Below, in pieces: positions 2,794-37,201 of a DNA stretch of 64,000 bases. Each line of letters begins with the position of its first letter. Position 1 is the stretch's first letter. This stretch comes from Clostridia bacterium (GTDB taxonomy: Bacteria > Bacillota > Clostridia > Oscillospirales > CAG-272). Position numbers and translations under genes: made by a program. The notes beneath the pieces are model-generated. The model saw nothing but the letters and a program-made list of their open reading frames with translations. It was not told the origin of the DNA and searched no databases. The DNA lies in contig JAFVQU010000011.1 of assembly GCA_017504625.1 (NCBI GenBank), forward strand, positions 10,035 to 74,034. The letters are read 5' to 3'.

Positions 2794-5700
2794 ATGAAGA
2801 TCAAAAGACTAATTTATTTATTGCTTATTCTGTCGTTGATAGTCGTAGGACTTGTTGCATGTGAAGAATCTAAGTACAACTTTATTGTTCTTACGCCGAA
2901 ATTTCAAATTTATACCGATGATAGCGTGACGATCCCCAACGTTTCTTACGAATTATCATTGGAGGATGTAAATACGGGCGTATACGTAGATCAGTCAAGG
3001 GTTACGTATTCGCTCTACGGCGACAACGACGTTAACGCGACGCTGAACGGAAACCGCATCAGCGCGACGGGCATCGGTGAGGTAGTGGTCAAAGCAACCT
3101 ATACCCACGAGGGAACCGAGTACACGACGTACACGGACGTCAAGTTTGTAGAGCTTGTTCCCAAGTTTTCTGTCGTCGGAGAGCTGAGCGTAGGAACTCC
3201 CGTTGAGTTTTACGTGATGTCTGAATGCGGACAGTATACCGTGCCGCTTGACTTTTCGAATATATCTATAGTATCGGGAAATGCCACGGTAGAGCAGGCG
3301 CAGGATAGCTACGGTAACGTATATTACGTTATTACGGCGCGTAGCGCGGGGGAAGTAACCGTGAGCGCCGATATTACGTATAAGGGACTTGATTTTACCT
3401 GCGAAGAAACCTTCAGCTTCACTAAAAAGCCATTCACTCTTTCAACTGAATCAAATGAGTTTTTCGTAGGATACGATCTGAAGCTTGTACCGACGCTTGA
3501 CCTTGAGGGCTTTGATCCTTCGCGCGTGGTTTACACGGTAAAATCGGGTAACGCAACTATAAACGGTGCAAATCTTCGCTCCACGATGGCGGGAGACGTT
3601 GTCGTTTACGCAACCTATGAGGATAACGGCGAGGTATATCAGAGTGACGATTGCGTCATAAGCTTCGACTACAGAGAAGGAACGATAATGGACGCCGAGA
3701 GCCTGCTTGCGATAGCAAATAACTCAGGCGAGTTCTACATCGGCTCTGATATAGACCTTTCGGGCATTGAGAGCTGGACTCCTATCGAAAACTTCACGGG
3801 AACTCTTTACGGTAACGGATTTACTATCAAAGGCTTGAATATCAAGGCAAGATCCTTAGAAGAGAACAAGGGACTTTTTGCAACTCTCGGCGGAACGGTA
3901 GAAAATCTTAAAATTGAGGGAACGCTCACCTGCCGCGGAGAAGCGCAGAAGCTCGGACTTCTTTGCGGAACGAATAACGGTACGATAAGAAACGTCACGG
4001 TAAGCGGAAGTGTTGAAGCTCCATATTCTGATTACGTCGGTGGTATCGCGGGATATTCAAACAACTCGAACATAACGGGATGCACGACGAACGTGACCGT
4101 AAACGCGAGAGAATACGTCGGCGGTAACTCGGGCTTTGTGATGGCGACGCGAAACGGAAGCATCGTAATTGCCGATAACGTAAACCACGGCGCTATCATA
4201 GGTAAATCGCGAGTAGGCGGCTTGTATGGTATGTTAGACATACTGGATGGCGAAAATACCGAAACGATTATAGTAATCTCAAATAAAAACTACGGTGAAG
4301 TCACAGGCTCGAAGAATTACGTAGGTGGTATAGTCGGTTTTGCTGAAGGCACGAAGTATACGTGGAATGCAGGCTATAGGTCAGCCACCGCATATCTGAA
4401 GATCACGGATTGCACCAATGAAGCTAACGTCGCAGGCGTTGATTACATTGGTGGAATTGTAGGAAATGCAGAAGCGTACGTGTCCGAAATATCCTTCTGT
4501 ACAAATACGGGCGACGTCAGCGGTAACAGCTACGTAGGAGGATACGCCGGCAGAGCTGTCGGAACTACTATGCAGGTATTGACAAACAATATCACGGTTA
4601 CCGGTAAATCTTACGTTGGCGGAATTGCAGGATTTGCAGGTTTGATCGACACGTGTACTAACAACGGAGACGTTAAAATCAGCGGATTTATCGTACAAGG
4701 CGGAGAAGAAAAAATATCTTACGCGGGCGGTATTGCAGGATATGTAACGGGTGCTACGAATTGTATAAACAATTCTGATATTGACGCATCGGCAGGCGGT
4801 GATTATATAGGCGGTATCGCGGGCTTCATTATGGCGACAAGATCGTCGTCAAACATAATAGAGAACAACCAGAACCACGGCAATATCATCGGTACGGGAT
4901 ACGTTGGAGGATTGATAGGAAAGTTTGATATAGATAGTGGGGAAAATAACGAAACTCTTATACTGACGTTAAACGTTAACGATGGACAAATTACAGGCTC
5001 TAAAAACTACGTCGGTGGTCTGATCGGTTACGTTGATGGCACAAGGTATACGTGGAACGCAGGATATAGCTCTGCCACCGCATACGTCAAAATTCTCGAC
5101 TGTACCAACGAAGCAGACGTTATCGGAGCAGATTACGTCGGCGGAATTCTCGGAGGCTCAGGATTATATTTGAGTGAAATCTCATATTGCTCAAGCATAG
5201 GAGATATCAGCGGCAATAATTACGTTGGCGGATACGCAGGAGAGGCAGACGGAACGACTATAAATGAGTTGATCAATAATAACACGATCACGGGTAGATC
5301 TTACGTCGGAGGTATAGCAGGATATGCGGGAAAATGCTATTCCTGTGAAAATAACGGAACTATCGTTAACAAGTCTTATGCGATCGTAAACAACACGCAG
5401 GCTATATCTTATATAGGCGGTATAGCGGGTTATGCAACCGCTGCGGAGGAATGTGTAAATAACGTTAATATTGACGTAAGCACAGGCGGTGACTACGTCG
5501 GCGGTATAGTAGGATTTTTGATGGCAGAAAGATCTTCTGCAAACGTGGTACGGAATAACAAAAATCACGGTAATATCATCGGTGCGGGATACGTTGGCGG
5601 ACTGATTGGAATGTTTGATATAAAAGAGGGACAGAATAACGAGACTCTTGAGATAGCGTCAAACACTAATGACGGAGACGTTACCGGTTCGAAGAATTAC

Positions 5701-5958
5701 GTCGGCGGTCTTATCGGCTTTGCTGAAGGTACAAAGTGTACGTGGAATGCAGGATATAGCTCTGCCGTCGCATCAATTAAAATCATCGAATGTACAAACG
5801 AGGCAAACGTGACGGGCGCTGACTTTGTTGGCGGTTTGGTCGGTAGCTGTGGCTTGTATGTTATGAGTGAAGAGGTCATCTGGGGCACCAACACGAACTA
5901 CGGCAATGTAACAGGCACGGGCGAGCATTGCGGTGAACGCTACGGCTCAATGGGCTGA
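2794..5958 (+). CDS. GLUG-repeat surface lipoprotein (several Big_2-like domains + three ~230-aa super-repeats)
   Basis: GGAGG at 2784-2788 and ATG at 2791/2794. Signal peptide with lipobox (LSLIVVGLVAC). Big_2-like segments. Conserved entry module PIENFTGTLYGNGFTIKGLNI. YVGGIAGY repeats. Tail YGSMG-stop. Confidence 0.9.
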   Translation: MKIKRLIYLLLILSLIVVGLVACEESKYNFIVLTPKFQIYTDDSVTIPNVSYELSLEDVNTGVYVDQSRVTYSLYGDNDVNATLNGNRISATGIGEVVVKATYTHEGTEYTTYTDVKFVELVPKFSVVGELSVGTPVEFYVMSECGQYTVPLDFSNISIVSGNATVEQAQDSYGNVYYVITARSAGEVTVSADITYKGLDFTCEETFSFTKKPFTLSTESNEFFVGYDLKLVPTLDLEGFDPSRVVYTVKSGNATINGANLRSTMAGDVVVYATYEDNGEVYQSDDCVISFDYREGTIMDAESLLAIANNSGEFYIGSDIDLSGIESWTPIENFTGTLYGNGFTIKGLNIKARSLEENKGLFATLGGTVENLKIEGTLTCRGEAQKLGLLCGTNNGTIRNVTVSGSVEAPYSDYVGGIAGYSNNSNITGCTTNVTVNAREYVGGNSGFVMATRNGSIVIADNVNHGAIIGKSRVGGLYGMLDILDGENTETIIVISNKNYGEVTGSKNYVGGIVGFAEGTKYTWNAGYRSATAYLKITDCTNEANVAGVDYIGGIVGNAEAYVSEISFCTNTGDVSGNSYVGGYAGRAVGTTMQVLTNNITVTGKSYVGGIAGFAGLIDTCTNNGDVKISGFIVQGGEEKISYAGGIAGYVTGATNCINNSDIDASAGGDYIGGIAGFIMATRSSSNIIENNQNHGNIIGTGYVGGLIGKFDIDSGENNETLILTLNVNDGQITGSKNYVGGLIGYVDGTRYTWNAGYSSATAYVKILDCTNEADVIGADYVGGILGGSGLYLSEISYCSSIGDISGNNYVGGYAGEADGTTINELINNNTITGRSYVGGIAGYAGKCYSCENNGTIVNKSYAIVNNTQAISYIGGIAGYATAAEECVNNVNIDVSTGGDYVGGIVGFLMAERSSANVVRNNKNHGNIIGAGYVGGLIGMFDIKEGQNNETLEIASNTNDGDVTGSKNYVGGLIGFAEGTKCTWNAGYSSAVASIKIIECTNEANVTGADFVGGLVGSCGLYVMSEEVIWGTNTNYGNVTGTGEHCGERYGSMG

Positions 5959-5972
5959 TCTCGGAGGACGTT

Positions 5973-8639
5973 ATGTATTATAACAATCAAAAAAAGGCGA
6001 CGAGAGTCAAGGAGCTGCTTTGTGTTTTGCTCGCGTTGGCGGTTCTTGCCGCGGCGTTGATTCTCGTCACGGGATGCGGCGGCGCATCTCCCGATAATTA
6101 CGGCGGGGAAATGCGGCTTCACCTTTCAACCGAGCCTTTACGCGACGAATCCTTGGGTGATTATGCGGACGTCGGTTATTACGTCAATTCCGAGGTAATG
6201 CTTACTCCAAGACTTGAAATTGAGGGATTTGATCCCTCAAGGGTAGCTTATACCGTCAAGTCGGGGAACGCCACTATTGAAAATTCAAAGCTTAAAGCAA
6301 GCGCGCTCGGTGAGGTCGTGATATATGCGACCTACGAGCAGGACGGCAAGATCTATCAGAGTGATGATGTGACCTTGTATTTCAGCGAGAGAAGGGGAAT
6401 TATCATTGATGCCGAGGGACTTCTCCAAATGGCAAACAGCAGTGATACCTTCTTCCTCGCGGCAGATATTGACCTTTCATCGTATGAAAGCTGGATTCCG
6501 ATTGAAAACTTCACGGGAACTCTTTACGGTAACGGATTTACGATAAAGGGAATCAATATTGTTGCAAGGTCAATGGATGAAAACAAAGGACTTTTCGCAA
6601 TTCTTGGCGGAACAGTCGATAATCTCAAGATTGAGGGAAAGATCTCCTGCAGCGGTGAGGCTTCAGGTCTTGGACTTCTTTGCGGAAGGAGCAAGGGCAA
6701 GATAACCAACGTGTCCGCAAGCGGCACGGTTGACGCGCCTTATTCCAATTACGTCGGGGGTATCGTGGGATATGCGGACGGCTCGCACACCTCGGGCTGC
6801 ACCTCGGACGTGAGCGTCACCGGAAGAGAATACGTCGGTGGTCAGGTCGGATATATGGCGTCCACGCGCAAGGGCGACGTTGCTTTCGCCGACAATATCA
6901 ACTACGGTAGAGTGGTAGGTGAATCCTACGTCGGCGGCGTGTACGGATGCTTCACCTTTGCACAGACCAGCGAGGAAAACAACGCGACTATCGTTGCAAA
7001 CAAAAATTTCGGCGAGGTATTTGGCACGAAGAGCTACGTCGGCGGAATAGTCGGATCGTTGTCAGGCGGTTCGTACGAGGTAAGATTATCCTCAAGATAT
7101 CAGTATTATTACTCGAGAGTAAGCCTTATCGAGTGTAGCAACGAGGCAAACGTAACAGGCGACGGCTACGTCGGCGGCGTTATCGGTAAGATAGGTAATT
7201 ACGTTACCGAGGTGTTGATATCGACAAACTCCGGTGAGATATCGGGAAACGATAATATAGGCGGAGTTGTCGGACACGCAAGCGTTTCAACGATAAAAGA
7301 CCTTACGAATAACGGTAAGGTTCTTGGCAAGGCTTACGTCGGCGGCATCGCGGGCAATTCCGGCTCGAAGCTTGACAAGTGTACTAACAACGGTGAGATA
7401 AACGTTATCGGCTTCAAGCTCACCGAGGATAACATGAAGGTGTCCTACGCGGGCGGTATCGTCGGTTACGCTATCGAGATAGAGAACTGCGTAAATAACG
7501 CGAATATCGAAGCGGGTGCGGCAGGCGACTTTGTAGGCGGCATCGCGGGATACGTAATGGCTCCTTTATCGAATAACGCTTCGATAAAGGATAACAAGAA
7601 TCACGGTGCGGTTATCGGAACGAGATACGTTGGAGGAGCATTTGGTTTTGTTGATATCACGTCAAATCTTGATAATGCGACGGTTTTGGTCGTATCCAAT
7701 GTAAACGACGGTGAGGTTACGGGCTCAGATAACTACGTCGGCGGAGTCATAGGATATGCAAAGGGCACAGACGCCTATGACCGGAAAGCAGGAAGCTTTA
7801 CGTCATATCTGAAGATAATGGAGTGTGAAAATGAAGCGGACGTTATCGGAACCGATTACGTCGGCGGTATTGTCGGATATGCGGATCAATACGTGGCAGA
7901 GATTTCATTCTGCAAGAATTCAAGCGACGTTATGGGTAACGAATACGTCGGCGGTTACGCAGGATATACCTCGAATGCGACAAGCATTAAAAATCTCACC
8001 AACAGCAATACCGTAACGGGTAAGGCATACGTCGGTGGAATAGCGGGCAGGGGCGGCTTGGCGCAGTCCTGTACGAATAACGGAAGCGTCAATCTCGTCG
8101 GATATATTCTGAGTGCCGATAATCAGCTTCTCTCCTACGCGGGAGGAATTGCGGGTTATCTTTACGGTGCAGTAGATTGTATCAATAACTCCAATATTGA
8201 TGCAAGCGAGGCAGGGGATTTCGTTGGCGGTATTGCGGGATATATCAGTATCTCAAGCGATGTGTCGGGCAACAAGAACCACGGCGAGATCAAGGGCTGC
8301 TCCTTTGTTGGCGGTCTGTTTGGATATTGCACTGCTACGGGAAATAATACCGTGCAGTTCAGTAAAAATATCAACGACGGCGCAGTCATAGGCGCGAACG
8401 ATTACGTCGGCGGTGTCGTTGGATGCTTTGGTAGTGCGTCAAGCAAATTAGGAATTATCAGAGTTACCGAATGTAAGACCGAGGCGAACGTTACAGGTGC
8501 TGACTTTGTCGGCGGAATCGCTGGAAAATGCGATAGCATTGTTGATGAAACTAAGGTCGTATGGTCTACGAATATTTGTGACGGCACGGTAAAGGCTACG
8601 GGTGAGCATTACGGCAAGCTTTACGGATCAATGAATTGA
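5973..8639 (+). CDS. GLUG-repeat surface lipoprotein, third paralog
   Basis: GGAGG at 5963-5967 lies 5 nt before the ATG. Lipobox LILVTGCGG. Same entry module and repeats as the two upstream genes. Tail YGSMN-stop. Confidence 0.9.
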   Translation: MYYNNQKKATRVKELLCVLLALAVLAAALILVTGCGGASPDNYGGEMRLHLSTEPLRDESLGDYADVGYYVNSEVMLTPRLEIEGFDPSRVAYTVKSGNATIENSKLKASALGEVVIYATYEQDGKIYQSDDVTLYFSERRGIIIDAEGLLQMANSSDTFFLAADIDLSSYESWIPIENFTGTLYGNGFTIKGINIVARSMDENKGLFAILGGTVDNLKIEGKISCSGEASGLGLLCGRSKGKITNVSASGTVDAPYSNYVGGIVGYADGSHTSGCTSDVSVTGREYVGGQVGYMASTRKGDVAFADNINYGRVVGESYVGGVYGCFTFAQTSEENNATIVANKNFGEVFGTKSYVGGIVGSLSGGSYEVRLSSRYQYYYSRVSLIECSNEANVTGDGYVGGVIGKIGNYVTEVLISTNSGEISGNDNIGGVVGHASVSTIKDLTNNGKVLGKAYVGGIAGNSGSKLDKCTNNGEINVIGFKLTEDNMKVSYAGGIVGYAIEIENCVNNANIEAGAAGDFVGGIAGYVMAPLSNNASIKDNKNHGAVIGTRYVGGAFGFVDITSNLDNATVLVVSNVNDGEVTGSDNYVGGVIGYAKGTDAYDRKAGSFTSYLKIMECENEADVIGTDYVGGIVGYADQYVAEISFCKNSSDVMGNEYVGGYAGYTSNATSIKNLTNSNTVTGKAYVGGIAGRGGLAQSCTNNGSVNLVGYILSADNQLLSYAGGIAGYLYGAVDCINNSNIDASEAGDFVGGIAGYISISSDVSGNKNHGEIKGCSFVGGLFGYCTATGNNTVQFSKNINDGAVIGANDYVGGVVGCFGSASSKLGIIRVTECKTEANVTGADFVGGIAGKCDSIVDETKVVWSTNICDGTVKATGEHYGKLYGSMN

Positions 8640-27072: not shown

Positions 27073-27936
27073 TTAACTTTTTCCTTTTATAATATGAGTT
27101 ATAACGTATATCAGAATATCCACCGCGGCGACGGTTGCGCCTACGGGAGTTTCAAGAATAATGGACAAAAGGACACCGAGAAGCGCGCCGATTGCCGCAA
27201 TTATCGGGGAGAGGAGAAGTGAGAGCTTAAAGCTCTTGCACAAGCGCATAGCCGACATAGCGGGGAATATGATGAGTGAGGAAATAAGCAGTGCGCCCGC
27301 AAGCTTCATTCCGATAACGATAACAGTGGCGGTTACGACTGCGATTGCTAAATTGTAAAGCCCCGTTTTCGTGCCCGTCGCCCTTGCGACTCTCTCATCA
27401 AGTGTCAGTGAGAAAAGCTTGTGTCTGAATATGACGGTGAGAACGATAAGTAGCGCCGTTATCGTGGCGATTATCACGATGTCGGTCGTATCAGACGCGA
27501 GAATTTCCTGTGAGCCGAAAAGCGCGGTGCATACGTCGCCGCCAAGGTTGGCTTCACCGCCGCCAACCTTCATTATAGTGTAGCCTACCGCAAGCGCACC
27601 CGCAGAAATGATAGCCACAGCCGCGTCGCCCATTATCTTCTTTCCCGAAAGTGTGAGAAGTATGACGGCCGCCAAAATCGTGACGGGGAGGGTGATCATT
27701 TCAAGATCAAGTATGCCAAGCGTTGCCGCGATCGCCGCCGCGCCAAACGCAACGTGAGAAAGTCCGTCACCAAGCAAGGAATAACGCTTCAGGACCAATA
27801 CGACACCCAGTAAAGCGGCTGAAACAGAAACCAGAACCGTTACTATAAGCGCGTTTCTGATAAATCCGTAGGATAAATACTCGCCAAGTCGCGATATAGC
27901 TTGCGCAAAATTCAAGGTTAAAATATTCAACGTCAT
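27073..27936 (-). CDS. metal (Zn/Mn) ABC transporter permease, ABC-3 family
   Basis: ZnuB/MntB-like sequence: ALLGVVLVLKRYSLLGDGLSHVAFGAAA and about 8 TM segments. Confidence 0.8.
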   Translation of the reverse strand: MTLNILTLNFAQAISRLGEYLSYGFIRNALIVTVLVSVSAALLGVVLVLKRYSLLGDGLSHVAFGAAAIAATLGILDLEMITLPVTILAAVILLTLSGKKIMGDAAVAIISAGALAVGYTIMKVGGGEANLGGDVCTALFGSQEILASDTTDIVIIATITALLIVLTVIFRHKLFSLTLDERVARATGTKTGLYNLAIAVVTATVIVIGMKLAGALLISSLIIFPAMSAMRLCKSFKLSLLLSPIIAAIGALLGVLLSIILETPVGATVAAVDILIYVITHIIKGKS

Positions 27937-28703
27937 TTTGCACCGCCCATATATCTGAATCCGCCCTCACCGAAGGGGATGTCGTCGCCGTTTTGCTTGT
28001 GGTCTGCATCAACGTATGCCTTTGCTTCGTCGAGCCTCAGATATTCGTCTACCGTACCGAAAAAGACTGAATCCTTGTTTATTCTAAGGATTTTAGTTCC
28101 GTTCTTGAGTGCGGCATCAATATCGTGAGTTACCGTCACAACCGTCATTTTGTGTCGGCGGTTGAGGTCGTGTATAAGTGAATATATATCGTACGTTGTT
28201 TTGGCGTCAAGGCTCGTTACGGGCTCGTCAAGGATAAGCATTTTTTCCGCGGCAGAGAGCGCTCTTGCAAGCGCGACTCTTTGACGCTGACCGCCCGAAA
28301 GATCGCGGTAGGGGTGACGAGCTATCGAGGTCACGCCAAGTCTTTCCATATTCTCAAAAGCTGTTTTTTTAGCGCTTTTATTAATAAAGAGACCGTTTTT
28401 AGCGCGGTTCAGACATCCCGACTCAACTACCTCGCACACAAGTGCGGGAAAATCCTTTGATACGGGATTTTGTTGCGTAAGAACACCTATCTCGCGCCTT
28501 TTGATGCCGCAAAGCTCGATCTTGCCAAGAGTCGGTCGCTTAAGGCCTAAAATGGCGTTGAGAAGAGTTGATTTTCCCGAGCCGTTTTCACCGATAATGC
28601 ACAGATAGTCGCCCTCGCATATATCAAACGAAAGGTTTTCGATTACATTTACACCGTCGTATGAAAGAGTGATACTATTTACCCTGATAAGTGTCTTTGA
28701 CAA
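27933..28703 (-). CDS. metal ABC transporter ATP-binding protein
   Basis: Walker A GENGSGKST, signature LSGGQRQR, Walker B MLILDEP. The TTG start is uncertain (see findings). Confidence 0.85.
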   Translation of the reverse strand: MSKTLIRVNSITLSYDGVNVIENLSFDICEGDYLCIIGENGSGKSTLLNAILGLKRPTLGKIELCGIKRREIGVLTQQNPVSKDFPALVCEVVESGCLNRAKNGLFINKSAKKTAFENMERLGVTSIARHPYRDLSGGQRQRVALARALSAAEKMLILDEPVTSLDAKTTYDIYSLIHDLNRRHKMTVVTVTHDIDAALKNGTKILRINKDSVFFGTVDEYLRLDEAKAYVDADHKQNGDDIPFGEGGFRYMGGAK

Positions 28704-28868: not shown

Positions 28869-28883
28869 CGTAATTATTATAAC
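28869..28883. promoter_or_regulatory. Zur-box-like operator (CGTAATTATTATAAC)
   Basis: 11 of 13 defined positions of CGTAATnATTACGA. Overlaps the -10 region of the minus-strand promoter of the metal ABC genes. Confidence 0.35.
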
Positions 28884-28904
28884 ACTTTGCCGGCAGTTTG
28901 TCAA
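28876..28904 (-). promoter_or_regulatory. SigA-type promoter of the metal ABC operon
   Basis: On the minus strand: TTGACA, 17-nt spacer, TATAAT. Confidence 0.65.
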
Positions 28905-28906
28905 TT

Positions 28907-28946
28907 GAAAAAGAAAACTCCGTTGCACTCATGCAGCGGAGTTTTT
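28907..28946 (-). terminator. intrinsic terminator ending the rnf-containing operon
   Basis: Minus strand: aaaactccgctgca-tgag-tgcaacggagtttt, then cttttt. Confidence 0.75.
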
Positions 28947-28948
28947 TA

Positions 28949-29449
28949 TTAAAATTTTAGTTTGTCGAGTTTTTTTACAAGAATGCCTGATACATAACCG
29001 ATAATCGCGCCCGCAATCGTTCCGCTGATGAGCAGCAAGGGCAGCTCTAAAGCAAGTCCGGCGGTCTGATACCAAATGCACACCGCAATTATCTGTCCGA
29101 TGTTATGCAGAACTCCGCCGACGACACTGACGGCAATACAGGAGAACAAGTTTGTCCTTTTCAACAAAATTATTCCCAGAAGGCTCAGCACCGCTCCTGC
29201 GAGGCTTAAAACCAAACCCGTTATATCGCGTGTAAATCCACAAAAAAACATCAGGAAAATGCGAAGTATACTTACAAGAACTGTTTCCTTCCAACCGATC
29301 TTGTAAAGCACGACCATCATTACGAGATTAGGAAATCCAACCTTAAAGCCGTTATTAGCGGCGAATATGGGGATTTGACTTTCCAAGTAGGAGAGAACCA
29401 TTGCAAGAGCAATACTGACACCTATAAAAGCAACCTTTTTTGTCTTCAT
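28949..29449 (-). CDS. Gx transporter family protein (Hpre_diP_synt_I / ECF-S-like membrane protein)
   Basis: 166 aa with 5-6 TM segments. LSYLESQIPIF..., GFPNLVMMVVLY, GGVLHNIGQI are typical of this family. Confidence 0.75.
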   Translation of the reverse strand: MKTKKVAFIGVSIALAMVLSYLESQIPIFAANNGFKVGFPNLVMMVVLYKIGWKETVLVSILRIFLMFFCGFTRDITGLVLSLAGAVLSLLGIILLKRTNLFSCIAVSVVGGVLHNIGQIIAVCIWYQTAGLALELPLLLISGTIAGAIIGYVSGILVKKLDKLKF

Positions 29450-29489
29450 TTGATTCTCTCCTTCCTTGAAATTTCATCGTTTATAATGA

Positions 29490-29873
29490 CTAACCAAGAA
29501 CTATATCAGGATTGTTTTCACCCATGTCATCACCATATACAGTAACGACAAGATTATTAGGTAAGCAAGCAATAGATTCATTGACTCTGCTTATTTTTGA
29601 GTGCTTGGTACAGCTTTGCGGATCGTTTTGAGGACAATTGGCTTCTATCATCCATGCCTTCCCGCCTTCGATCTTCAAGACGTTAGTTCCGCCATTCAGC
29701 GAATATTCTCCGTCTTTAGAAAGACTATATCGGGCAATTTCGTGTCGATTTTCGCCCTCACCGAGGGTTACGATAACGTAGGAGCCGTCCTGTTTGAAAA
29801 GCTCGACGAGAACAAATGACGAAACCGCTATCGCTAAAACAACGCCTATGAGAATAATATCTCTTATCTTCAT
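29490..29873 (-). CDS. NusG domain II-containing (DUF1312) membrane-anchored protein
   Basis: N-terminal TM helix, then ...NVLKIEGGKAWMIEANCPQNDPQSCTKHSKISRVNESIACLPNNLVVTV, the characteristic Cys-containing C-terminus. Confidence 0.75.
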   Translation of the reverse strand: MKIRDIILIGVVLAIAVSSFVLVELFKQDGSYVIVTLGEGENRHEIARYSLSKDGEYSLNGGTNVLKIEGGKAWMIEANCPQNDPQSCTKHSKISRVNESIACLPNNLVVTVYGDDMGENNPDIVLG

Positions 29874-30445
29874 TAAATGTTGAAGTTAAGCGCGAGAAGT
29901 GCAAGAACGATCATTCCCGCGGTGAGAAGTGAGATGGGAAGTCCGCGGAAGGAAGCGGGAACAGCGTCCTCATCAACCGAAACGTACTTGATCTTGGAGT
30001 AGAGAGTCATAGTAAGTGTAAAGCCGAGACCAACTGCGAACGCGGTCACGAGAGCCTTGCCAAGAGTGTCGATATGGGTGTTGTGGATACAAAGACCGAG
30101 AACGGCACCGTTTATTGCAAACTTAACGAAATGTGCGTGGCAGTAATTATCAAGAAGCTTCCTGCCGATAAGGTGCATAGCTTCAACAATTACGAGTATT
30201 ACCAATACGAATACTATGGTCTGGAGATACTCAAGCTCGTACTTTGCGAGAACGAACTTGTTGATGGGCCAGGTGATAAGCGTGGTAAGAAGCATTACAA
30301 CGGTAGTGCCCGCGCCAAGAGCAAGAGATCTCTTTACAGAACGCTCGTTTTCAAGAACAGCACCGGTACCGAGACACTCGATAAGTGCGTAGTTGTTAGA
30401 GAGAATACCTGCGAGAATTATTCCGAGAATTATCTTAAAATCCAT
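29873..30445 (-). CDS. rnfA: Rnf complex subunit A
   Basis: ILSNNYALIECLGTGAVLEN..., 6 TM segments, 190 aa. Confidence 0.9.
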   Translation of the reverse strand: MDFKIILGIILAGILSNNYALIECLGTGAVLENERSVKRSLALGAGTTVVMLLTTLITWPINKFVLAKYELEYLQTIVFVLVILVIVEAMHLIGRKLLDNYCHAHFVKFAINGAVLGLCIHNTHIDTLGKALVTAFAVGLGFTLTMTLYSKIKYVSVDEDAVPASFRGLPISLLTAGMIVLALLALNFNI

Positions 30446-30447
30446 TA

Positions 30448-31056
30448 TCAGTTATCCTCCTTTTCGTCATGATGATGAAGACCGGTTACCTTGTTGATAA
30501 CTGCAAGCACGATAGCAAGCACAAGGTATCCGCCGAATGCGCTTACAAGCCCCGAGATCTTGTAATCCTGAAGGAATGCGATTTCCTTGCCCCAGATAGT
30601 AGCGTTGCCGAGAACTTCTCTGATAAGCGAGCAAACTACCATAATTACGGTGAAGAACACGCCGGTAACGAGTGCAACCTCAATAGATTTGACTTCGCCA
30701 TTGTGATCTGCAACCTCTTCAGCGTCACGGTAAACTACCGCGCTTACCGCAAGAGCGGCAAGGTGAACGCCGAGCATGTCAACAACCTCGGGAACGAATG
30801 CCTGCATAAGCATTGAGATAAGAGTTACGAATCCCGTAATGATAAGAACGTATACGGGAAGCTTTGCATAGTTAGGAATGATCTTGTGGATAGCGGAAAC
30901 CACGATAGAGGAGAGGAGCATCGAAAGAAGCACCGCAACACCCATACCGATAGCCGCACGGATATCCTTACTCGACGCCATAACGAATCCTGCGCCGAGA
31001 ACGAGAAGAATTGAGGGCGTACCTCTGAGGAGATACGATGTTTTAGTCTTTTTCAT
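30448..31056 (-). CDS. rnfE: Rnf complex subunit E
   Basis: RnfE/NqrD-like 6-TM protein of 202 aa, adjacent to rnfA and rnfG. Confidence 0.88.
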   Translation of the reverse strand: MKKTKTSYLLRGTPSILLVLGAGFVMASSKDIRAAIGMGVAVLLSMLLSSIVVSAIHKIIPNYAKLPVYVLIITGFVTLISMLMQAFVPEVVDMLGVHLAALAVSAVVYRDAEEVADHNGEVKSIEVALVTGVFFTVIMVVCSLIREVLGNATIWGKEIAFLQDYKISGLVSAFGGYLVLAIVLAVINKVTGLHHHDEKEDN

Positions 31057-32297
31057 TACTGTTCTCCTCCCATGATAGAATTAAATGAGGCAAATGCATC
31101 TTCGACAGACTGCTTCATAGCATTAGAAGTCATAGTAGCGGTTGCGATAACTGCCTCTTCACCCGTAAAGGTATCAGAGGTGATTCCAACGAAGCCCGCC
31201 TTGTATTCAGCATCGTTCATACCGCCGAATGCCATGAAATATTCCTTTTCAAAGATGAATGCCTTAGCATCGACCTTTGCGATCGCGCCGGTTTCATCAA
31301 TGATGATATAAACGTCCATCTGATGGAAGCCGATGCTTCTTGAATAGAATGCATAGTAGGTTGCATCGCCAACCTTAAGGCTAACCGCGTCAACAACTGT
31401 GTTGAAGGTGTCAAGCTCAATAGAAGTGATCTCGGTCGCACCCTCCATCATTCTCTCAACCTTGGTGATGAATGCGTCGGTGTAGGACTTCTGATTAGCG
31501 GTTGCGTGAGCCTTTGCCTCGGTAACGAGTGCCTCGTGAGCATCAGTTACGTCATTTGCCTCTACGTCGTAGATCTTGCATACGCCGGTAGCGTTTACAA
31601 GTGCGAGGTAGGATGCGTCACCCTCGGTCATAATATAAGCAAAGCCTGTGTCGTTTTCAGCCTTAAGAGCCTTCTGGATGTTGCCGGAAGCGGTAGCGTC
31701 GGAAAGCTTGGTGTAACCGGGAGCAACGGTAGGAATAAGCTCCTCAAGTATCTGCGCGTCAGACTTAACGCCTGCGGCGATAAGATTATTAGAGATAAGC
31801 ACGCCCATAGCCTCGGTAACCGCATTCTTGAACGCGGTAGAGGAGAAGGTGCTTCCCGCATAAAGTCCAACGTCTGCAAGAGCGGAGTCCTTACCGATAT
31901 AGGTGGAGGGGTAATCCGCGCCGAAAATAAGAGATTCGGAGTGACCTGCAAGCTCAATGCCGCAGATTTTACCGGTTGCATCAACACCAATAACGATATC
32001 CATAGGAGTTGATCCGGTATACTGAGAGGTAGCCTGAGCCTCGATAACGTAACCAAGACCGTTTGTTTCCTTGTTGACCTTGACTACGCTTGCGGGAACG
32101 TCGCTGAGAGTTGCGGTGATATCCTCGTAAGCAGATCCGCCGGGCATTACTGCGTTAAGACGGTCGTTTGCCGCGCCTGCATTTTTAGCCGCGATAATAG
32201 GACCTGTGTAGAGGTTGAGAGCGAATGCCGCCGCACCGAATACTGCTGAAACGGCGAGGAGAATCGCAATAGTGATAACAAAATACTTAATTTTCAT
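31056..32297 (-). CDS. rnfG: Rnf complex subunit G, double-length with two FMN_bind-like domains
   Basis: N-terminal TM. First FMN-binding module ends LYAGSTFSSTAFKNAVTEA; the second ends VIATATMTSNAMKQSVEDA. 413 aa, against about 180-210 aa for typical RnfG. Confidence 0.8.
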   Translation of the reverse strand: MKIKYFVITIAILLAVSAVFGAAAFALNLYTGPIIAAKNAGAANDRLNAVMPGGSAYEDITATLSDVPASVVKVNKETNGLGYVIEAQATSQYTGSTPMDIVIGVDATGKICGIELAGHSESLIFGADYPSTYIGKDSALADVGLYAGSTFSSTAFKNAVTEAMGVLISNNLIAAGVKSDAQILEELIPTVAPGYTKLSDATASGNIQKALKAENDTGFAYIMTEGDASYLALVNATGVCKIYDVEANDVTDAHEALVTEAKAHATANQKSYTDAFITKVERMMEGATEITSIELDTFNTVVDAVSLKVGDATYYAFYSRSIGFHQMDVYIIIDETGAIAKVDAKAFIFEKEYFMAFGGMNDAEYKAGFVGITSDTFTGEEAVIATATMTSNAMKQSVEDAFASFNSIMGGEQ

Positions 32298-33238
32298 TAT
32301 TTAACACCTCCCAAGGTTTTCTTTTTCGTCCAATCGGAGATGAAGGGAGTGAGAAGGTTCATAGTAAGTATAGCTATCGAAACACCCTCGGGGTAGCCGC
32401 CAAACTGTCTGATCGCGAAGGTAAGAAGACCTGCGCCGATGCAGAACACAACGCGTCCCTTGCCCGTGATGGGAGTGGTAACGTAGTCGGTTGCCATGAA
32501 GATAGCGCCGAGAAGGAGACCGCCCGCAAGAACGTGCTGGAGAGCGAAGGTAGCGTTAAATCCGCCGAAGAGGAAGTAGCATACGAATACGGTAGCGGCA
32601 AAGGAAGTGGGAACGTACCACTTGATAACCTTGCGAGCTACGAGATAAGCAAAGCCGATGAGAAGCGCGATAGCGCAGGTCTCACCGATTGCGCCGGAGT
32701 GGTTACCGATAAAGAGGTCGAGAACCTTGATAGAAGCTGCAGCCTCTGCGCCCTGATTAAGAGTTACAAGGGGAGTTGCGGAAGCCTCGATCTCGGGCTT
32801 TATGGGGTTTGCGCCGCCCGCAACAGTGCTTGCGAAGGTAAGTAGCATGAACACACGAGCCGCAATAGCGGGATTTACGATGTTCTTACCGATACCGCCG
32901 AAGAAGCACTTTACGACAACGATTGCGAAAACGCTTCCGATAACACACTGCCAAAGGGGTATGTCAGCTCTCAGATTGAGAGCGAGAAGAAGACCGGTAA
33001 CAACTGCGGAGAAGTCACCAACAGTCTGCTTTTTATGAATGCAAAGATTAAAGAGGAACTCTGCAAGTACGGCACTTGCAACGCAGGTGAGGATCACCCA
33101 AAGAGCCTGAATACCGAAGATGATGATACCTGCAACTGCCGCAGGAAGCATTGCGATAACAACGTCAAGCATAACTTTGCTTGTCGATGCACCCTTCTGA
33201 TGAATATGAGGGGTAGAGGAGATGTGGAGCTTAGCCAT
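32297..33238 (-). CDS. rnfD: Rnf complex subunit D
   Basis: SSTPHIH....ASTSKVMLDVVIAMLPA and a polytopic NqrB/RnfD-like sequence. Confidence 0.9.
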   Translation of the reverse strand: MAKLHISSTPHIHQKGASTSKVMLDVVIAMLPAAVAGIIIFGIQALWVILTCVASAVLAEFLFNLCIHKKQTVGDFSAVVTGLLLALNLRADIPLWQCVIGSVFAIVVVKCFFGGIGKNIVNPAIAARVFMLLTFASTVAGGANPIKPEIEASATPLVTLNQGAEAAASIKVLDLFIGNHSGAIGETCAIALLIGFAYLVARKVIKWYVPTSFAATVFVCYFLFGGFNATFALQHVLAGGLLLGAIFMATDYVTTPITGKGRVVFCIGAGLLTFAIRQFGGYPEGVSIAILTMNLLTPFISDWTKKKTLGGVK

Positions 33239-34598
33239 TATTTGTTACCTCCTGTCTTTCTTTCTGTGCTGCCGCGTACTTCTTGAGGAATGCCTTTGCA
33301 TCCCAGTTCTTCTGGAGAAGAGGACGGTTAGCAGGACAAACGTAAGAGCAGCAAGCGCAGTCAACACACTGGCGAACGCCGGTATCGATAAGAGCCTTTG
33401 CTCTCTTATCCTCGTCCTTGATCTTCATGACACGGTCAACCTCAGCAACGCTAATGCCGACGGGGCACCTTTCTATACAGCGACCGCAGTTGATACAAGC
33501 GGAAGCCTCGGGAAGAACTGCGCTCTTCTCATCAAAGATAAGAACCGCGTTGGAAACCTTAACGATAGGATCGTCGATAGAGCAGATAGCAGTACCGTTC
33601 ATAGGACCGCCGACAACAACCTTGCCGGGCTCGCACTTAAGACCGGTTACCTTAACAAGCTCGCTGATGCGGGTACCGATAGGAGCGATAAGGTTCATGG
33701 GCTTGTCCACAGCGGGACCGTCAACGGTAACGATACGTTCAACAAGGGGCATACCGGTGTTGAGGTATTCTGCCATCTTTGCGATGGAAGAAACGTTGAT
33801 GATAAGCGCGCCGAAGGAGGGAAAACGTCTGCCTGCAACGGCAACTCTGCCGGTCGCGTTGTAGAGCATTACCTGCTTTGCACCCTGGGGATAGATAGCG
33901 TTAAGCTCGTGGATAACAACGTAATCCTTGCCCTCGAAGGTCTTTTTGAGAACCTCGATTGCATCGGGCTTGTTCTTCTCTATACAGATCATGAACTTAG
34001 CATCGCCAAGATACTCGTTCATGTACTTGCGGAGATACTCGATACCGTCTGCGATGAGATCGGGATGAAGGAGCATCATCTGGTGGTCGCTGGTGATATA
34101 GGGCTCACACTCTGCCGCGTTGATAAGCACGGTGTCGACCTTGTATTCGGGGTTCTTAGCCTCGTTGAACTTTGCCCAGGTGGGGAAAGCCGCGCCGCCA
34201 AGACCTACGATACCGCCGTCGCGAACTGCCTGAAGAAAGCTGTCGCAGTCGGTGAATTCGGGAGCCTTCATGTTGGGGTCTGCCTGCATAAGTCCGTCGC
34301 TCTCGATCTTGATTGCGAGCGTGCCCTTGCCGTCAGCGGTTTCCATGGGAGCGATCTCTGTGACCGTACCCGAAACGGTTGCGTGAACGGGGGAAGAGAA
34401 TCTGCCCTCCTCGCGAGCGATGAGCTGACCTACGTATACATGGTCGCCAACGGAAACGATAGGCTCCGCGTCGTGACCGGAATGCATATTCATAGGCAGA
34501 ATTACTTCTTTGGGTGTTTCAATTTTCACGGGAACACATCCGGCCGTGTGCTTATTGTGCGGCACGTGCAAGGACGAAATGTCTTTTTTGAAAATCAT
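33231..34598 (-). CDS. rnfC: Rnf complex subunit C
   Basis: GGAGG 7 nt before the ATG at 34598. GLGGAAFPT, two 4Fe-4S motifs CINCGRCIERCP and CVDCACCSYVCP. Confidence 0.92.
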   Translation of the reverse strand: MIFKKDISSLHVPHNKHTAGCVPVKIETPKEVILPMNMHSGHDAEPIVSVGDHVYVGQLIAREEGRFSSPVHATVSGTVTEIAPMETADGKGTLAIKIESDGLMQADPNMKAPEFTDCDSFLQAVRDGGIVGLGGAAFPTWAKFNEAKNPEYKVDTVLINAAECEPYITSDHQMMLLHPDLIADGIEYLRKYMNEYLGDAKFMICIEKNKPDAIEVLKKTFEGKDYVVIHELNAIYPQGAKQVMLYNATGRVAVAGRRFPSFGALIINVSSIAKMAEYLNTGMPLVERIVTVDGPAVDKPMNLIAPIGTRISELVKVTGLKCEPGKVVVGGPMNGTAICSIDDPIVKVSNAVLIFDEKSAVLPEASACINCGRCIERCPVGISVAEVDRVMKIKDEDKRAKALIDTGVRQCVDCACCSYVCPANRPLLQKNWDAKAFLKKYAAAQKERQEVTNNG

Positions 34599-34629
34599 TA
34601 GCACTCCTCCTAAATTTATTTATAATATT

Positions 34630-35706
34630 TTATTTTTTGTCATTTACAAGAGCGTGTAATCCATCGCTCATTTTCATTTCTCCGTCAGAGTATATCCAAA
34701 GGACTTCAACTCCGTCAAGAGAGTTCACGATTTCAGATCCGTCCTCGTAGCTCATACAGAAAAGAGCAGTTGAGAGCGCATCTGCAAGACCGCTGTCCTC
34801 GCAAATTACCGTAAGAGAGGTAAAATACTCGGAGGGCATAAGCGTATCCTTGTCGATTATATGGTGATATCTTACGCCGTCCACGGTGAAAAATCTTTCG
34901 TAGACGCCCGAGGTGACGCAAGAGGTATTTGCAAGATTAAGGTAGGTTGCATATTTGCTGGTATCCTGAGGGTCTTTTATGCCCGTAAGCCAGGTCGATC
35001 CGTCAACCTTTGTGCCTATAATGCGGATATTTCCGCCTATATTGAGAACGTACGAGGTCACACCAAGCTCTTTGAGGCGCTTTGCCGCCATTTCGGCAGC
35101 ATAGCCCTTACCAAGCGCTCCAACGTCGATAGACGCCTTGGGATCGCTGATTCGTACCGTATTATTTTCATCGTCAATTTCAAGAAGGGATATATCTGTG
35201 TGCGCGCTTGCCGAGAGAAGCTCCTCTTCGGTTGGGATTCGCGCGTTTACGGGATCGTTACTCGCCGCGCTTCTTGAGTCGTGCCAAGGGCGGAGAACTG
35301 CTCCCATCATAATATTCATCTCACCGCCGGTGAGAGTATAAAGCTCCTTTGCATAAAGGAGAAAATCGATAAGCCTCTGATCCACGCTTACGGCGTCGCC
35401 GCCTGCGTTAAGGTTTATCGTCTTAAGGTTATTTATTCCCGAATATTCGTAGTATATATCAAAAAGGTGATGGTAATCCTCAAGGATCTGCGCTACCTCA
35501 CCGCAGTTTTTTTCGAAGTCTGCCTGGGTATCTCCCGCGTAGCTGTAAACGTAGGAAACGGTATCAAAGTAGGTAAAATATACCATACCTTGAGGCTCGA
35601 TCTTCGCGTTCTGATCTGCCTTATGCGCAGTTTCAGGGCAGCCCGTCAAAAAAACGAGCAGCCCCAAAACCAAACATAGACAGGGAAGGGTTTTGAGTAA
35701 TTTCAA
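34630..35706 (-). CDS. apbE: FAD:protein FMN transferase (ApbE family) lipoprotein
   Basis: Lipobox LVFLTGCPE. MGAVLRPW, IDVGALGKGYAAE, NIGGNIRIIG, TSGVYERFF...YHHIIDKDT. Confidence 0.9.
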   Translation of the reverse strand: MKLLKTLPCLCLVLGLLVFLTGCPETAHKADQNAKIEPQGMVYFTYFDTVSYVYSYAGDTQADFEKNCGEVAQILEDYHHLFDIYYEYSGINNLKTINLNAGGDAVSVDQRLIDFLLYAKELYTLTGGEMNIMMGAVLRPWHDSRSAASNDPVNARIPTEEELLSASAHTDISLLEIDDENNTVRISDPKASIDVGALGKGYAAEMAAKRLKELGVTSYVLNIGGNIRIIGTKVDGSTWLTGIKDPQDTSKYATYLNLANTSCVTSGVYERFFTVDGVRYHHIIDKDTLMPSEYFTSLTVICEDSGLADALSTALFCMSYEDGSEIVNSLDGVEVLWIYSDGEMKMSDGLHALVNDKK

Positions 35707-35731
35707 AATTCCTAACTCCTGAAATATTTAA

Positions 35732-36802
35732 TTATCTTGCGTTGTTAGCAGACTTAGCAACAACGTCGCAGATACCGGTGATCTGCATAGTGCATCCTGC
35801 GGAGAGAAGTCCCTCTTCAACAGAGATGTAGTGGTTGTTAACAAGCTTGGTCTCCATGTTGTCGATCTCGGTAGCAGTCTTGCCAAGAACGTAGTTGGAG
35901 AATGCAGCGGACTGAACGTACCACTCAAGAACGGTACCACCCTCTACGTTGGGAGCGCCGAACTTAGCCATGTTGTAGCCTTCCTTGAGCTCTCTCTTGG
36001 TGCCCTTGAAGGAGGTCTCAACGATCTCACCAGCTGCGCTGATAGTGATCTTGGGCTGAATAGCATCGTTAAGAGTAGCGATAACCTTGCCGTCAGCAAC
36101 AACTGCGCAAGCCATATCGGAGTACATAGCAACGGTACCGTCAGCCTCTGCGGTAGCAGCAACGGTAGCAGCGTCAACGGTAGTGTTAGCAGCAACGCCG
36201 AGAGTGAAGGTTGCATTGGTCTTGAAGCTCATACCCTGCTCGTCCTTGCAAGCCTTAGCAACTGCAGTGATGAAGTCGGTGATTTGGATGGTGCATCCTG
36301 CGGTGAGAAGAGCCTCATCAGCAGCGATAACGTAGCCTGCACCCTCAACAACCTGGGTCTGGATAGCCTCAACCTCAGCTACGGTCTTACCAACAACGTA
36401 AGCCTCGAAAGCCTTAGCCTGATCGTACCACTCCTTAACAACACCGTCGCCGTTCCAGTCCATGCTCTGACCGTACTTAGCCATGTTGTAGTTGTCGCCG
36501 AGCTCCATCTTGGTCTGGAAGGTCTTAGCGGTGTCAACTGCACCACCGGTAACGTCCATCTTGTTCTGAGCAACGTCGATGCGGCAAGCAACGATCTTAC
36601 CGTCAGCGTCGGTAACAACAGCAGCAACAGTAGCGTCAACCTGTGCGTTACCGGTAGCGGAGCTGTTCATGTCAACAACTACGCCCATACCGAGCTTGTA
36701 CTCAGCCTCGGTTGCAGGAGTTTCGGTGTTGTTTGCGTTTCCGCAAGCAACGATTGCAAGTGCCATAACGAGGCACAATGCGATTGCGAGAATTCTTTTC
36801 AT
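35732..36802 (-). CDS. tandem-duplicated secreted lipoprotein, first gene of the apbE-rnf operon; possible flavinylation substrate
   Basis: Lipobox LAIVACGN. Two homologous halves: KMELGDNYNMAKYG...EWYDQAKAFEAYVVGKT...LLTAGCTIQIT and KRELKEGYNMAKFG...EWYVQSAAFSNYVLGKT...LLSAGCTMQIT. The function is inferred from context only. Confidence 0.8.
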   Translation of the reverse strand: MKRILAIALCLVMALAIVACGNANNTETPATEAEYKLGMGVVVDMNSSATGNAQVDATVAAVVTDADGKIVACRIDVAQNKMDVTGGAVDTAKTFQTKMELGDNYNMAKYGQSMDWNGDGVVKEWYDQAKAFEAYVVGKTVAEVEAIQTQVVEGAGYVIAADEALLTAGCTIQITDFITAVAKACKDEQGMSFKTNATFTLGVAANTTVDAATVAATAEADGTVAMYSDMACAVVADGKVIATLNDAIQPKITISAAGEIVETSFKGTKRELKEGYNMAKFGAPNVEGGTVLEWYVQSAAFSNYVLGKTATEIDNMETKLVNNHYISVEEGLLSAGCTMQITGICDVVAKSANNAR

Positions 36803-37201
36803 AGTCTTTCCCCTTTATGAAAAAATATTTTATATTTACGGAGAACGTCTCGCGCTTAACGACGGGTTTATATAATAATGAAGGATTTGCCAAAAACATA
36901 AACCAATCGTCAAACGCGAGAAGCTACCCGCATTCTCAATTATTATATCACATACAAGTAGAAAAAGTCAACGATTTTTTATCTTATTTTATTGAAAATT
37001 GTAGATTTTTTAACAATGCCTAAATTTAACAAAAAAATATTAGTTTCTTTGTTAAAAATAACCAAAAAATTGTAAGACTTCTTACAAAAAAGTACGGTAT
37101 AAATGCGTATATTTGAATATTTATTCAAGTATAAATTGTGTAAAAATCCCCTTGAAAAATATGAATTTTGTTCATATCATCCAAGGGGGGATTTCTATAT
37201 T

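Follow-up and report, generated by a model that had tools for sequence, protein, structure and literature searches.

An RnfB-less Rnf-type operon with co-encoded flavin-loading genes in a Clostridia bacterium as candidate for a ferredoxin-independent electron conduit

Introduction

Canonical Rnf is a ferredoxin:NAD+ oxidoreductase coupled to Na+ or H+ translocation and encoded by rnfCDGEAB operons, and solved structures are available (7ZC6, 8AHX, 9ERI). According to a 2025 review (PMC12174285), the flexible ferredoxin domain of its RnfB subunit reduces the [2Fe-2S] cluster of RnfA and RnfE, which passes the electron to RnfG, and the cofactors of the Rnf/Nqr membrane core are strictly conserved. 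In this study, we analyzed a nine-gene Rnf-type operon without rnfB located on a DNA stretch of 64,000 nucleotides (nt), here called the window, from a Clostridia bacterium (CAG-272, Oscillospirales; GCA_017504625.1, contig JAFVQU010000011.1, positions 10,035-74,034 of the forward strand). Its sequence suggests an Rnf-derived, ferredoxin-independent conduit with its own flavin-loading kit, which would act as an outward flavin relay from NADH to the cell surface. To this reading we assign a probability of about 0.6.

Several related systems have been described. In the survey of Meheust et al. (2021), RNF clusters were defined by the presence of RnfB, while the term 'NQR/RNF-like' was used for a two-subunit system with an RnfD-NqrF fusion (PMC8238504). 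The latter was modelled as a one-way exporter by Huang et al. (2024; PMC11334425). Since RNF is defined by RnfB in the published surveys, RnfB-less operons were not counted there. Rnf clusters with a multi-flavinylated RnfG and with eetB beside the rnf genes are already described (Meheust 2021; Rivera-Lugo 2023, PMC9973259), and for them a bifurcated side path from a complete Rnf has been proposed. In Listeria monocytogenes, the locus for extracellular electron transfer (EET) comprises Ndh2, DmkA/B, EetA, EetB, FmnA, FmnB and PplA. Members of PF07456 belong to the EetB family; in Listeria, the protein is the substrate-binding subunit of a transporter of the energy-coupling factor (ECF) type exporting flavin adenine dinucleotide (FAD) for the extracytoplasmic ApbE homologue FmnB, and 3,328 genomes show eetB colocalised with eetA, and 572 genomes of Clostridia show it colocalised with genes for Rnf (PMC9973259).

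With canonical Rnf, the window operon shares homologous RnfC, RnfD, RnfG, RnfE and RnfA subunits in the same order as well as the cofactor motifs of RnfC, RnfD and RnfG, but it differs by the absence of RnfB, the replacement of four cysteine ligands, a doubled RnfG, and a lipoprotein and an ApbE gene fixed in the operon. The proposed one-way route, leading from cytosolic NAD(P)H through a membrane protein of the RnfD/NqrB type to a flavinylated FMN_bind protein outside the cytosol, resembles that of the NQR/RNF-like system. The latter, however, consists of a PF03116-PF00175 fusion without the RnfD flavinylation threonine, lacks RnfC, RnfA and RnfE, and is found mainly in Actinobacteria and the candidate phyla radiation (CPR), whereas the window operon has a separate RnfC as NADH module, an RnfD of 313 amino acids (aa) with the threonine, and retained, cofactor-less RnfA and RnfE. 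The Listeria EET locus has in common with it an ApbE/FmnB-type transferase, a PF07456 protein and a NusG_II (DUF1312) protein; a surface lipoprotein, predicted to be flavinylated at two sites, would stand where PplA does in Listeria. Unlike in Listeria, an RnfC-RnfD-RnfG module would take the place of the Ndh2/demethylmenaquinone step, and the lipoprotein is missed by the Pfam FMN_bind model. The doubled RnfG and the eetB and ApbE genes beside rnf are shared with the multi-flavinylated Rnf clusters of Clostridia, but in the window operon the main path to ferredoxin would be gone. In a literature search excluding most subscription journals, no description of an RnfB-less, cluster-less five-subunit Rnf was found.

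Results

Absence of RnfB and loss of the [2Fe-2S] ligands

The operon comprises nine minus-strand genes at positions 28949-36802 of the window, encoding in order of transcription a lipoprotein, ApbE, RnfC, RnfD, a double-length RnfG, RnfE, RnfA, a NusG_II protein and a PF07456 protein (Table 1). The original prediction had given the same order from the lipoprotein to a 'Gx transporter', and the open reading frames and their Pfam and NCBIfam families agree with it. As it also stated, the NusG_II gene follows rnfA with a 1-nt overlap and there is no rnfB in the window; moreover, no RnfB-like match was found anywhere on the window's contig. A search of the whole genome (1.96 Mb, 97% complete) for rnfB and a second rnf locus, which had been suggested as a check, detected both on another contig (C6). 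There, a complete rnfCDGEAB operon encodes RnfC (453 aa), RnfD (321 aa), RnfG (171 aa), RnfE (234 aa), RnfA (197 aa) and RnfB (269 aa), and the last of these genes is the sole rnfB of the genome. The original prediction had left the choice between an rnfB encoded elsewhere and a different electron route. Each is partly correct: an rnfB does lie elsewhere, in a complete operon of its own, but the second option is the one that matters here. Judging from the identities between the window and C6 proteins (RnfC 42%, RnfD 54%, RnfG 29%, RnfE 40%, RnfA 31%), the two Rnf sets are old paralogues.

The decisive evidence, which was not part of the original prediction, is the loss of the four cluster cysteines. 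For their identification, RnfE and RnfA were aligned to the genome's own canonical proteins and to solved chains of 9ERI, 7ZC6 and 8AHX (RnfE: 9ERI_E, 7ZC6_E; RnfA: 7ZC6_A, 9ERI_A). In this alignment, all four intramembrane [2Fe-2S] cysteine ligands are replaced in the window proteins. In RnfE, LGxCP has become LGAGF (Cys to G23) and NC has become SA (Cys to A106), while in RnfA the corresponding changes are LGICP to LGTGA (Cys to G28) and NC to NG (Cys to G113). The C6 RnfE and RnfA have all four cysteines intact. When one genome per species was scanned with a pattern, a close RnfE was found in 50 species-level metagenome-assembled genomes (MAGs), here called the close clade. With the window included, the replacement state of this clade is G/A in 49 of 49 RnfE and G/G in 46 of 46 RnfA proteins.

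As both RnfB and the cluster are missing, the Rnf loop has lost its ferredoxin half, and a coupling to ferredoxin is not expected. Going by these alignments, the complex encoded by the operon is very probably independent of RnfB and devoid of the [2Fe-2S] cluster. The ratios of nonsynonymous to synonymous substitution rates (dN/dS) against nine relatives were 0.10 for RnfC, 0.17 for RnfD, 0.09 for RnfE and 0.14 for RnfA; these values are rough, as dS is near saturation, but still far below 1. By this measure, the arrangement is conserved under purifying selection.

Cofactor sites retained in RnfC, RnfD and RnfG

RnfC carries GLGGA at residue 134 and CxxCxxCxxxCP at residues 370 and 413, corresponding to the module for NADH and flavin mononucleotide (FMN) and to two [4Fe-4S] motifs. 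Both iron-sulfur (Fe-S) motifs are present in all but one of 45 orthologues. In RnfD, the flavinylation motif SATP with T155 is retained, and (A/S/T)(G/S)ATPL is present in every one of the commonest orthologue variants listed. The N-terminal half of RnfG was aligned to canonical RnfG with an hhalign probability of 99.9%, and its C-terminal part represents a second FMN_bind domain (98.5%). The flavinylation threonines of both domains are aligned, namely T150 (AGST) in domain 1 and T388 (ATAT) in domain 2; the score of the whole protein against TIGR01947 is 27 bits (cut-off 102).

Between the two domains, residues ~186-270 (31540-31740) form a conserved segment (GNI..KA.N..G.A, VNA.G) that matches neither of them. 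Double-length RnfG proteins (370-390 aa) were also observed in many Rnf operons of the same order with canonical-type RnfE and RnfA, and with rnfB where the locus reaches far enough. Because of this company of canonical-type RnfE and RnfA, the doubling of RnfG is not tied to the loss of RnfB.

The tandem-repeat lipoprotein

The first gene of the operon had been predicted to encode a tandem-domain lipoprotein, and indeed its repeats 1 and 2 match each other with an hhalign probability of 100% (E 6e-47). Each repeat of ~160 aa ends with ALL-x-AGC(T/S)-x-Q ahead of a C-terminal helix, and flavinylation is predicted at T171 and T338. AlphaFold2 yielded a predicted local distance difference test score (pLDDT) of 88 and a predicted template modelling score (pTM) of 0.86 for the whole lipoprotein, and 88 and 0.84, respectively, for a single repeat. 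When a profile of both repeats was compared with an RnfG FMN_bind profile, a probability of 81% (E 1.2e-5) was obtained, with the T of AGCT placed on the flavinylated T of SGAT. All 53 homologues have S or T at this site in both repeats, and the preceding Cys is changed to Val in distant ones; both observations favor a flavin linked through a hydroxyl group over a metal site built on Cys. A search of the PDB sequences with a hidden Markov model (HMM) gave a weak match to 2KZX (E 0.17), with SGATIKV on aGCTIQI. Furthermore, the lipoprotein gene adjoins the ApbE gene wherever the contig reaches. In size, domain pairing and lack of an InterPro signature, the protein is like the class that Huang et al. 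(2024) named 'FMN-bind2', a likeness at the level of the class description. Taken at the level of profiles and motifs, these data suggest that the lipoprotein is probably a doubly flavinylated electron carrier.

An IscU-like Fe-S reading of the lipoprotein was rejected on two grounds: in distant homologues, Val takes the place of the motif Cys with S/T remaining invariant, and a twin-arginine motif is missing from the signal peptide.

The flavin-loading genes

The ApbE gene gives the single PF02424 match in the 97%-complete genome. PF07456 is likewise present in one copy, and the one ECF-T gene is located elsewhere in the genome. The Listeria gene lmo2639 within the EET locus carries DUF1312 (NusG_II), and by analogy the NusG_II protein of the operon is probably the counterpart of EetA. 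Its extracytoplasmic part contains three cysteines (C80, C88, C103).

As there is a single ApbE and a single EetB in the genome, the kit of the window operon must also mature the canonical Rnf of C6. The C6 rnfCDGEAB operon itself (3683-8614 of its locus) has no ApbE, eetA/eetB or lipoprotein gene adjoining. In two relatives (G004, G010), the order rnfEAB-NusG_II-PF07456-lipoprotein-ApbE was found, i.e. the kit lies beside canonical operons containing rnfB, and in a third one (G169) the ApbE and lipoprotein genes are divergent and upstream of rnfCDGEAB-NusG_II-PF07456. The original prediction had laid emphasis on the genes bracketing the Rnf genes; they do accompany the operon, but they are not specific to the RnfB-less state, since the same set flanks canonical operons.

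In a genome of another family (G026), the lipoprotein, ApbE and PF07456 genes form a stand-alone cluster with no adjoining rnf genes, showing that the kit can travel apart from Rnf.

Conservation, distribution and origin

The 50 MAGs of the close clade are labelled Clostridia, Oscillospiraceae or Eubacteriales, and most of those with a recorded host stem from the hindgut of goat, sheep, roe deer, yak, buffalo or cattle. On contigs that extend far enough, the genes are arranged as lipoprotein-ApbE-RnfC-D-G(405-646 aa)-E-A-NusG_II-PF07456, with nothing between rnfA and the NusG_II gene. The question raised with the original prediction, whether the rnfB-less layout is kept in relatives, can thus be answered positively, as the same order and the same Cys replacements recur throughout these species-level MAGs. 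Where an NCBI name is attached to the RnfE-like proteins, it reads 'hypothetical protein'.

Among 1.8 billion representatives, the nearest ~45 RnfE clusters are without the second Cys and ~15 are without both. Six distant loci with RnfE proteins of ~40% identity show the order lipoprotein-ApbE-RnfC-D-G(421-437)-E-A and no RnfB. In four of the six, NusG_II and PF07456-type genes come next, the latter being annotated by Pfam in three and without Pfam match in the fourth. RnfE of the distant loci keeps the first Cys only, while in RnfA the second Cys is always and the first mostly lost. A draw of 400 genomes across the class contained no close relative of this distant RnfB-less clade. In an order-wide HMM search, RnfB-less and canonical RnfE were not separated by score, and a survey of the same order (~300 genomes, 30+18 loci inspected) revealed one further RnfB-less operon (G096).

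In another RnfB-less operon (L137, 11188-13465), rnfA is followed by DHODB_Fe-S_bind and GltD/Pyr_redox_2 genes, an NfnAB-like pair replacing NusG_II and PF07456. The genomes of loci L067-L072 (family f20) have a second complete Rnf operon with a long RnfC of 624-626 aa, ~40% identical to the canonical RnfC of the genome studied here.

In a tree of RnfD, all RnfB-less rows form one group (support in the Shimodaira-Hasegawa-like approximate likelihood ratio test, SH-aLRT, 87) inside the canonical Rnf of the order. The group is sister to the canonical RnfD of this genome, and the fully Cys-less clade appears as a long derived branch. The topology fits a single origin by duplication, followed by loss of rnfB and then by stepwise loss of the ligands.

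Within the genus, 39 genomes were compared: 13 have both operon types, 11 only the canonical and six only the RnfB-less one (87-97% complete), and nine have neither. None of the six has a canonical RnfE, and in the four of them that were searched neither rnfB nor a second RnfD was found. This six-genome pattern is hard to explain by incompleteness alone. On account of these congeners, rnfB does not co-vary with the window operon type, and each orthologous operon on a contig of sufficient extent contains the accessory genes; on both counts, the reading of the original prediction survives.

Discussion

Proposed electron route

In the route that we propose, FAD would be exported by the EetB-like PF07456 protein together with the NusG_II protein and the ECF module encoded elsewhere. 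The ApbE lipoprotein would use the exported FAD to attach FMN to T155 of RnfD, T150 and T388 of RnfG, and T171 and T338 of the lipoprotein. Thereby, a chain could be assembled in which NADH is oxidized at RnfC and electrons pass from its FMN and Fe-S centers to riboflavin and FMN of RnfD, to FMN1 and FMN2 of RnfG, and via the lipoprotein's pair of flavins to an extracytoplasmic acceptor. Candidate acceptors are free flavins, Fe(III), humics and oxygen. The canonical return path from RnfG via the [2Fe-2S] cluster of RnfA/E and RnfB to ferredoxin would no longer be present, and RnfA and RnfE would remain as cofactor-less structural, possibly ion-conducting, subunits. A prenyltransferase of the UbiA family, which was matched in 14 of 14 control genomes, was not detected in the 97%-complete genome. 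Therefore, the Listeria-type Ndh2/demethylmenaquinone route is unavailable, and the Rnf-derived module would replace it; the operon itself also has no genes for Ndh2 or DmkA/DmkB.

Several points weigh against this route. A search of the genome for a terminal acceptor or a reductase outside the cytoplasm gave no candidate, the only full FAD_binding_2 protein being cytoplasmic. The link of the lipoprotein to FMN_bind is moderate (81%); Foldseek gave nothing significant in the PDB for the full model, and for a single repeat the best match was an IscU scaffold (TM-score 0.34/0.42, E 5e-3). Homologous sets of lipoprotein, ApbE and EetAB accompany canonical Rnf with RnfB and could serve maturation only. 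The proposed route does not account for the strong constraint under which the cofactor-less RnfA and RnfE stand; these subunits may act as scaffold or channel. Finally, most genomes are MAGs, so that absences are provisional.

Alternative explanations

Flavin relays are reversible in principle, and electrons might instead be taken up from external reduced flavins or partners for the reduction of NAD+. Likewise, the system might serve extracytoplasmic repair or metal reduction, for example in iron assimilation, and not bulk electron disposal, which would be in line with the missing dedicated terminal reductase and with surveys in which clusters for flavinylation were associated with iron assimilation and with a variety of extracytosolic reductases (PMC8238504). 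However, the reduction of NAD+ by donors at flavin potential would be uphill without energy input. Moreover, the flanking genes, a metal ATP-binding cassette (ABC) transporter downstream and a PHP protein upstream, are not kept beside the operon in relatives, and thus the operon has neither an iron transporter nor a reductase as a linked gene. We consider reverse flow or such a non-respiratory role unlikely.

A second alternative concerns only the last step. Here, the electron path would end at the second FMN domain of RnfG, and the lipoprotein would bind flavin or have another accessory task, for instance as a chaperone or receptor in the loading of flavins. The broader profile comparison with the flavinylated Thr aligned, the invariant hydroxyl residue in both repeats of the 53 homologues, the weak PDB sequence match to 2KZX, and the resemblance to the InterPro-less 'FMN-bind2' class in size and pairing all argue for a carrier instead, even though the lipoprotein has no Pfam FMN_bind match and no convincing structural neighbor, and hhalign gave no significant match when its repeats were compared with canonical RnfG by itself. 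An accessory role is accordingly quite improbable in our view.

It could further be asked whether RnfCDGEA is a decaying duplicate in which selection keeps the flavinylation and FAD-export kit alone, for the benefit of the canonical Rnf. Such a scenario would account for the genome's only ApbE and only PF07456 gene residing in this operon, for the same kit beside canonical Rnf in G004, G010 and G169, and for RnfE, RnfA and RnfG scoring far under the NCBIfam cut-offs. Decay is difficult to reconcile, though, with five Rnf genes that are intact in ~50 species with dN/dS values of 0.09-0.24, with conserved cofactor motifs in RnfC, RnfD and RnfG, with Cys replacements fixed as G/A/G/G and not random, and with an operon that is the sole Rnf-type locus in several species, which makes this explanation very unlikely. 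That the operon encodes an ordinary ferredoxin:NAD+ Rnf borrowing RnfB in trans from the C6 operon is hardly credible despite the full-length RnfB (269 aa) in the genome and both operon types in 13 of 39 congeners, since the acceptor cluster on RnfA/E has no ligands here, six congeners (87-97% complete) are without canonical RnfE and the four searched without RnfB, and the window RnfA and RnfE are just 31% and 40% identical to the canonical paralogues.

Significance of an Rnf without its ferredoxin half

The view of a 'strictly conserved' cofactor set in the membrane core is challenged by a conserved, selected lineage that dropped RnfB and the [2Fe-2S] cluster of RnfA/E and kept the rest. If the proposed outward relay is true, it would represent a new membrane route for extracellular/extracytoplasmic electron transfer in quinone-less anaerobes of the herbivore gut, and these fermenters would have more than fermentation products and hydrogen at their disposal for regenerating NAD+. 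In competing models, ion translocation takes place in RnfA/E, driven by [2Fe-2S] reduction, or in RnfD/NqrB. A natural 'half-Rnf' with presumably active RnfC-D-G, cluster-less RnfA/E and RnfD as the sole redox-active membrane subunit could show which half of Rnf/Nqr moves ions.

Gene layout and signals

The coordinates of all genes and signals are listed in Table 1. In transcription order, the first two junctions are gaps of 25 nt each; they are followed by overlaps of 8 nt, 1 nt and 1 nt, a gap of 2 nt, an overlap of 1 nt and a gap of 40 nt. The largest gap is thus within the limit of the original prediction, according to which every junction is under 45 nt or overlapping. Transcription had been placed from about 36900 to the terminator at 28907-28946, which is in agreement with the promoter-like site (36971-36942) and with the hairpin and U-run found at the end of the operon.

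Table 1. Features of the RnfB-less operon in the window
Feature	Position	Strand	Characteristics
Promoter-like site	36942-36971	minus	TTGACT-18-TATAAT with extended TG, 11/12 matches, consensus match only; 5' of first gene
Lipoprotein, 356 aa, two ~160-aa repeats	35732-36802	minus	Lipobox IVAC; without Pfam family
ApbE-type FAD:protein FMN transferase, lipoprotein	34630-35706	minus	PF02424, E 3e-63; lipobox LTGC
RnfC	33231-34604	minus	TIGR01945, 369 bits (cut-off 246)
RnfD, 313 aa	32297-33238	minus	TIGR01946, 282 bits (cut-off 207); PF03116 sole Pfam domain
RnfG-like, 413 aa	31056-32297	minus	Transmembrane anchor, FMN_bind 1, conserved linker, FMN_bind 2
RnfE homologue without cluster ligands	30448-31056	minus	Rnf-Nqr PF02508; NCBIfam 106 bits (cut-off 213)
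RnfA homologue without cluster ligands	29873-30445	minus	Rnf-Nqr PF02508; NCBIfam 100 bits (cut-off 229)
Membrane-anchored NusG_II (DUF1312) protein	29490-29873	minus	PF07009, E 4e-20
PF07456 (EetB family) protein	28949-29449	minus	E 7e-29
Intrinsic terminator	28907-28946 (approx.)	minus	Hairpin and U-run, free energy (dG) -16.2 kcal/mol, z -3.0; directly after last stop codon

No Rfam elements, including riboswitches, were found near the operon. Just past its terminator, a perfect TTGACA-17-TATAAT promoter with extended TG is located at 28876-28904 on the minus strand, towards the metal ABC transporter genes at 27073-28703.

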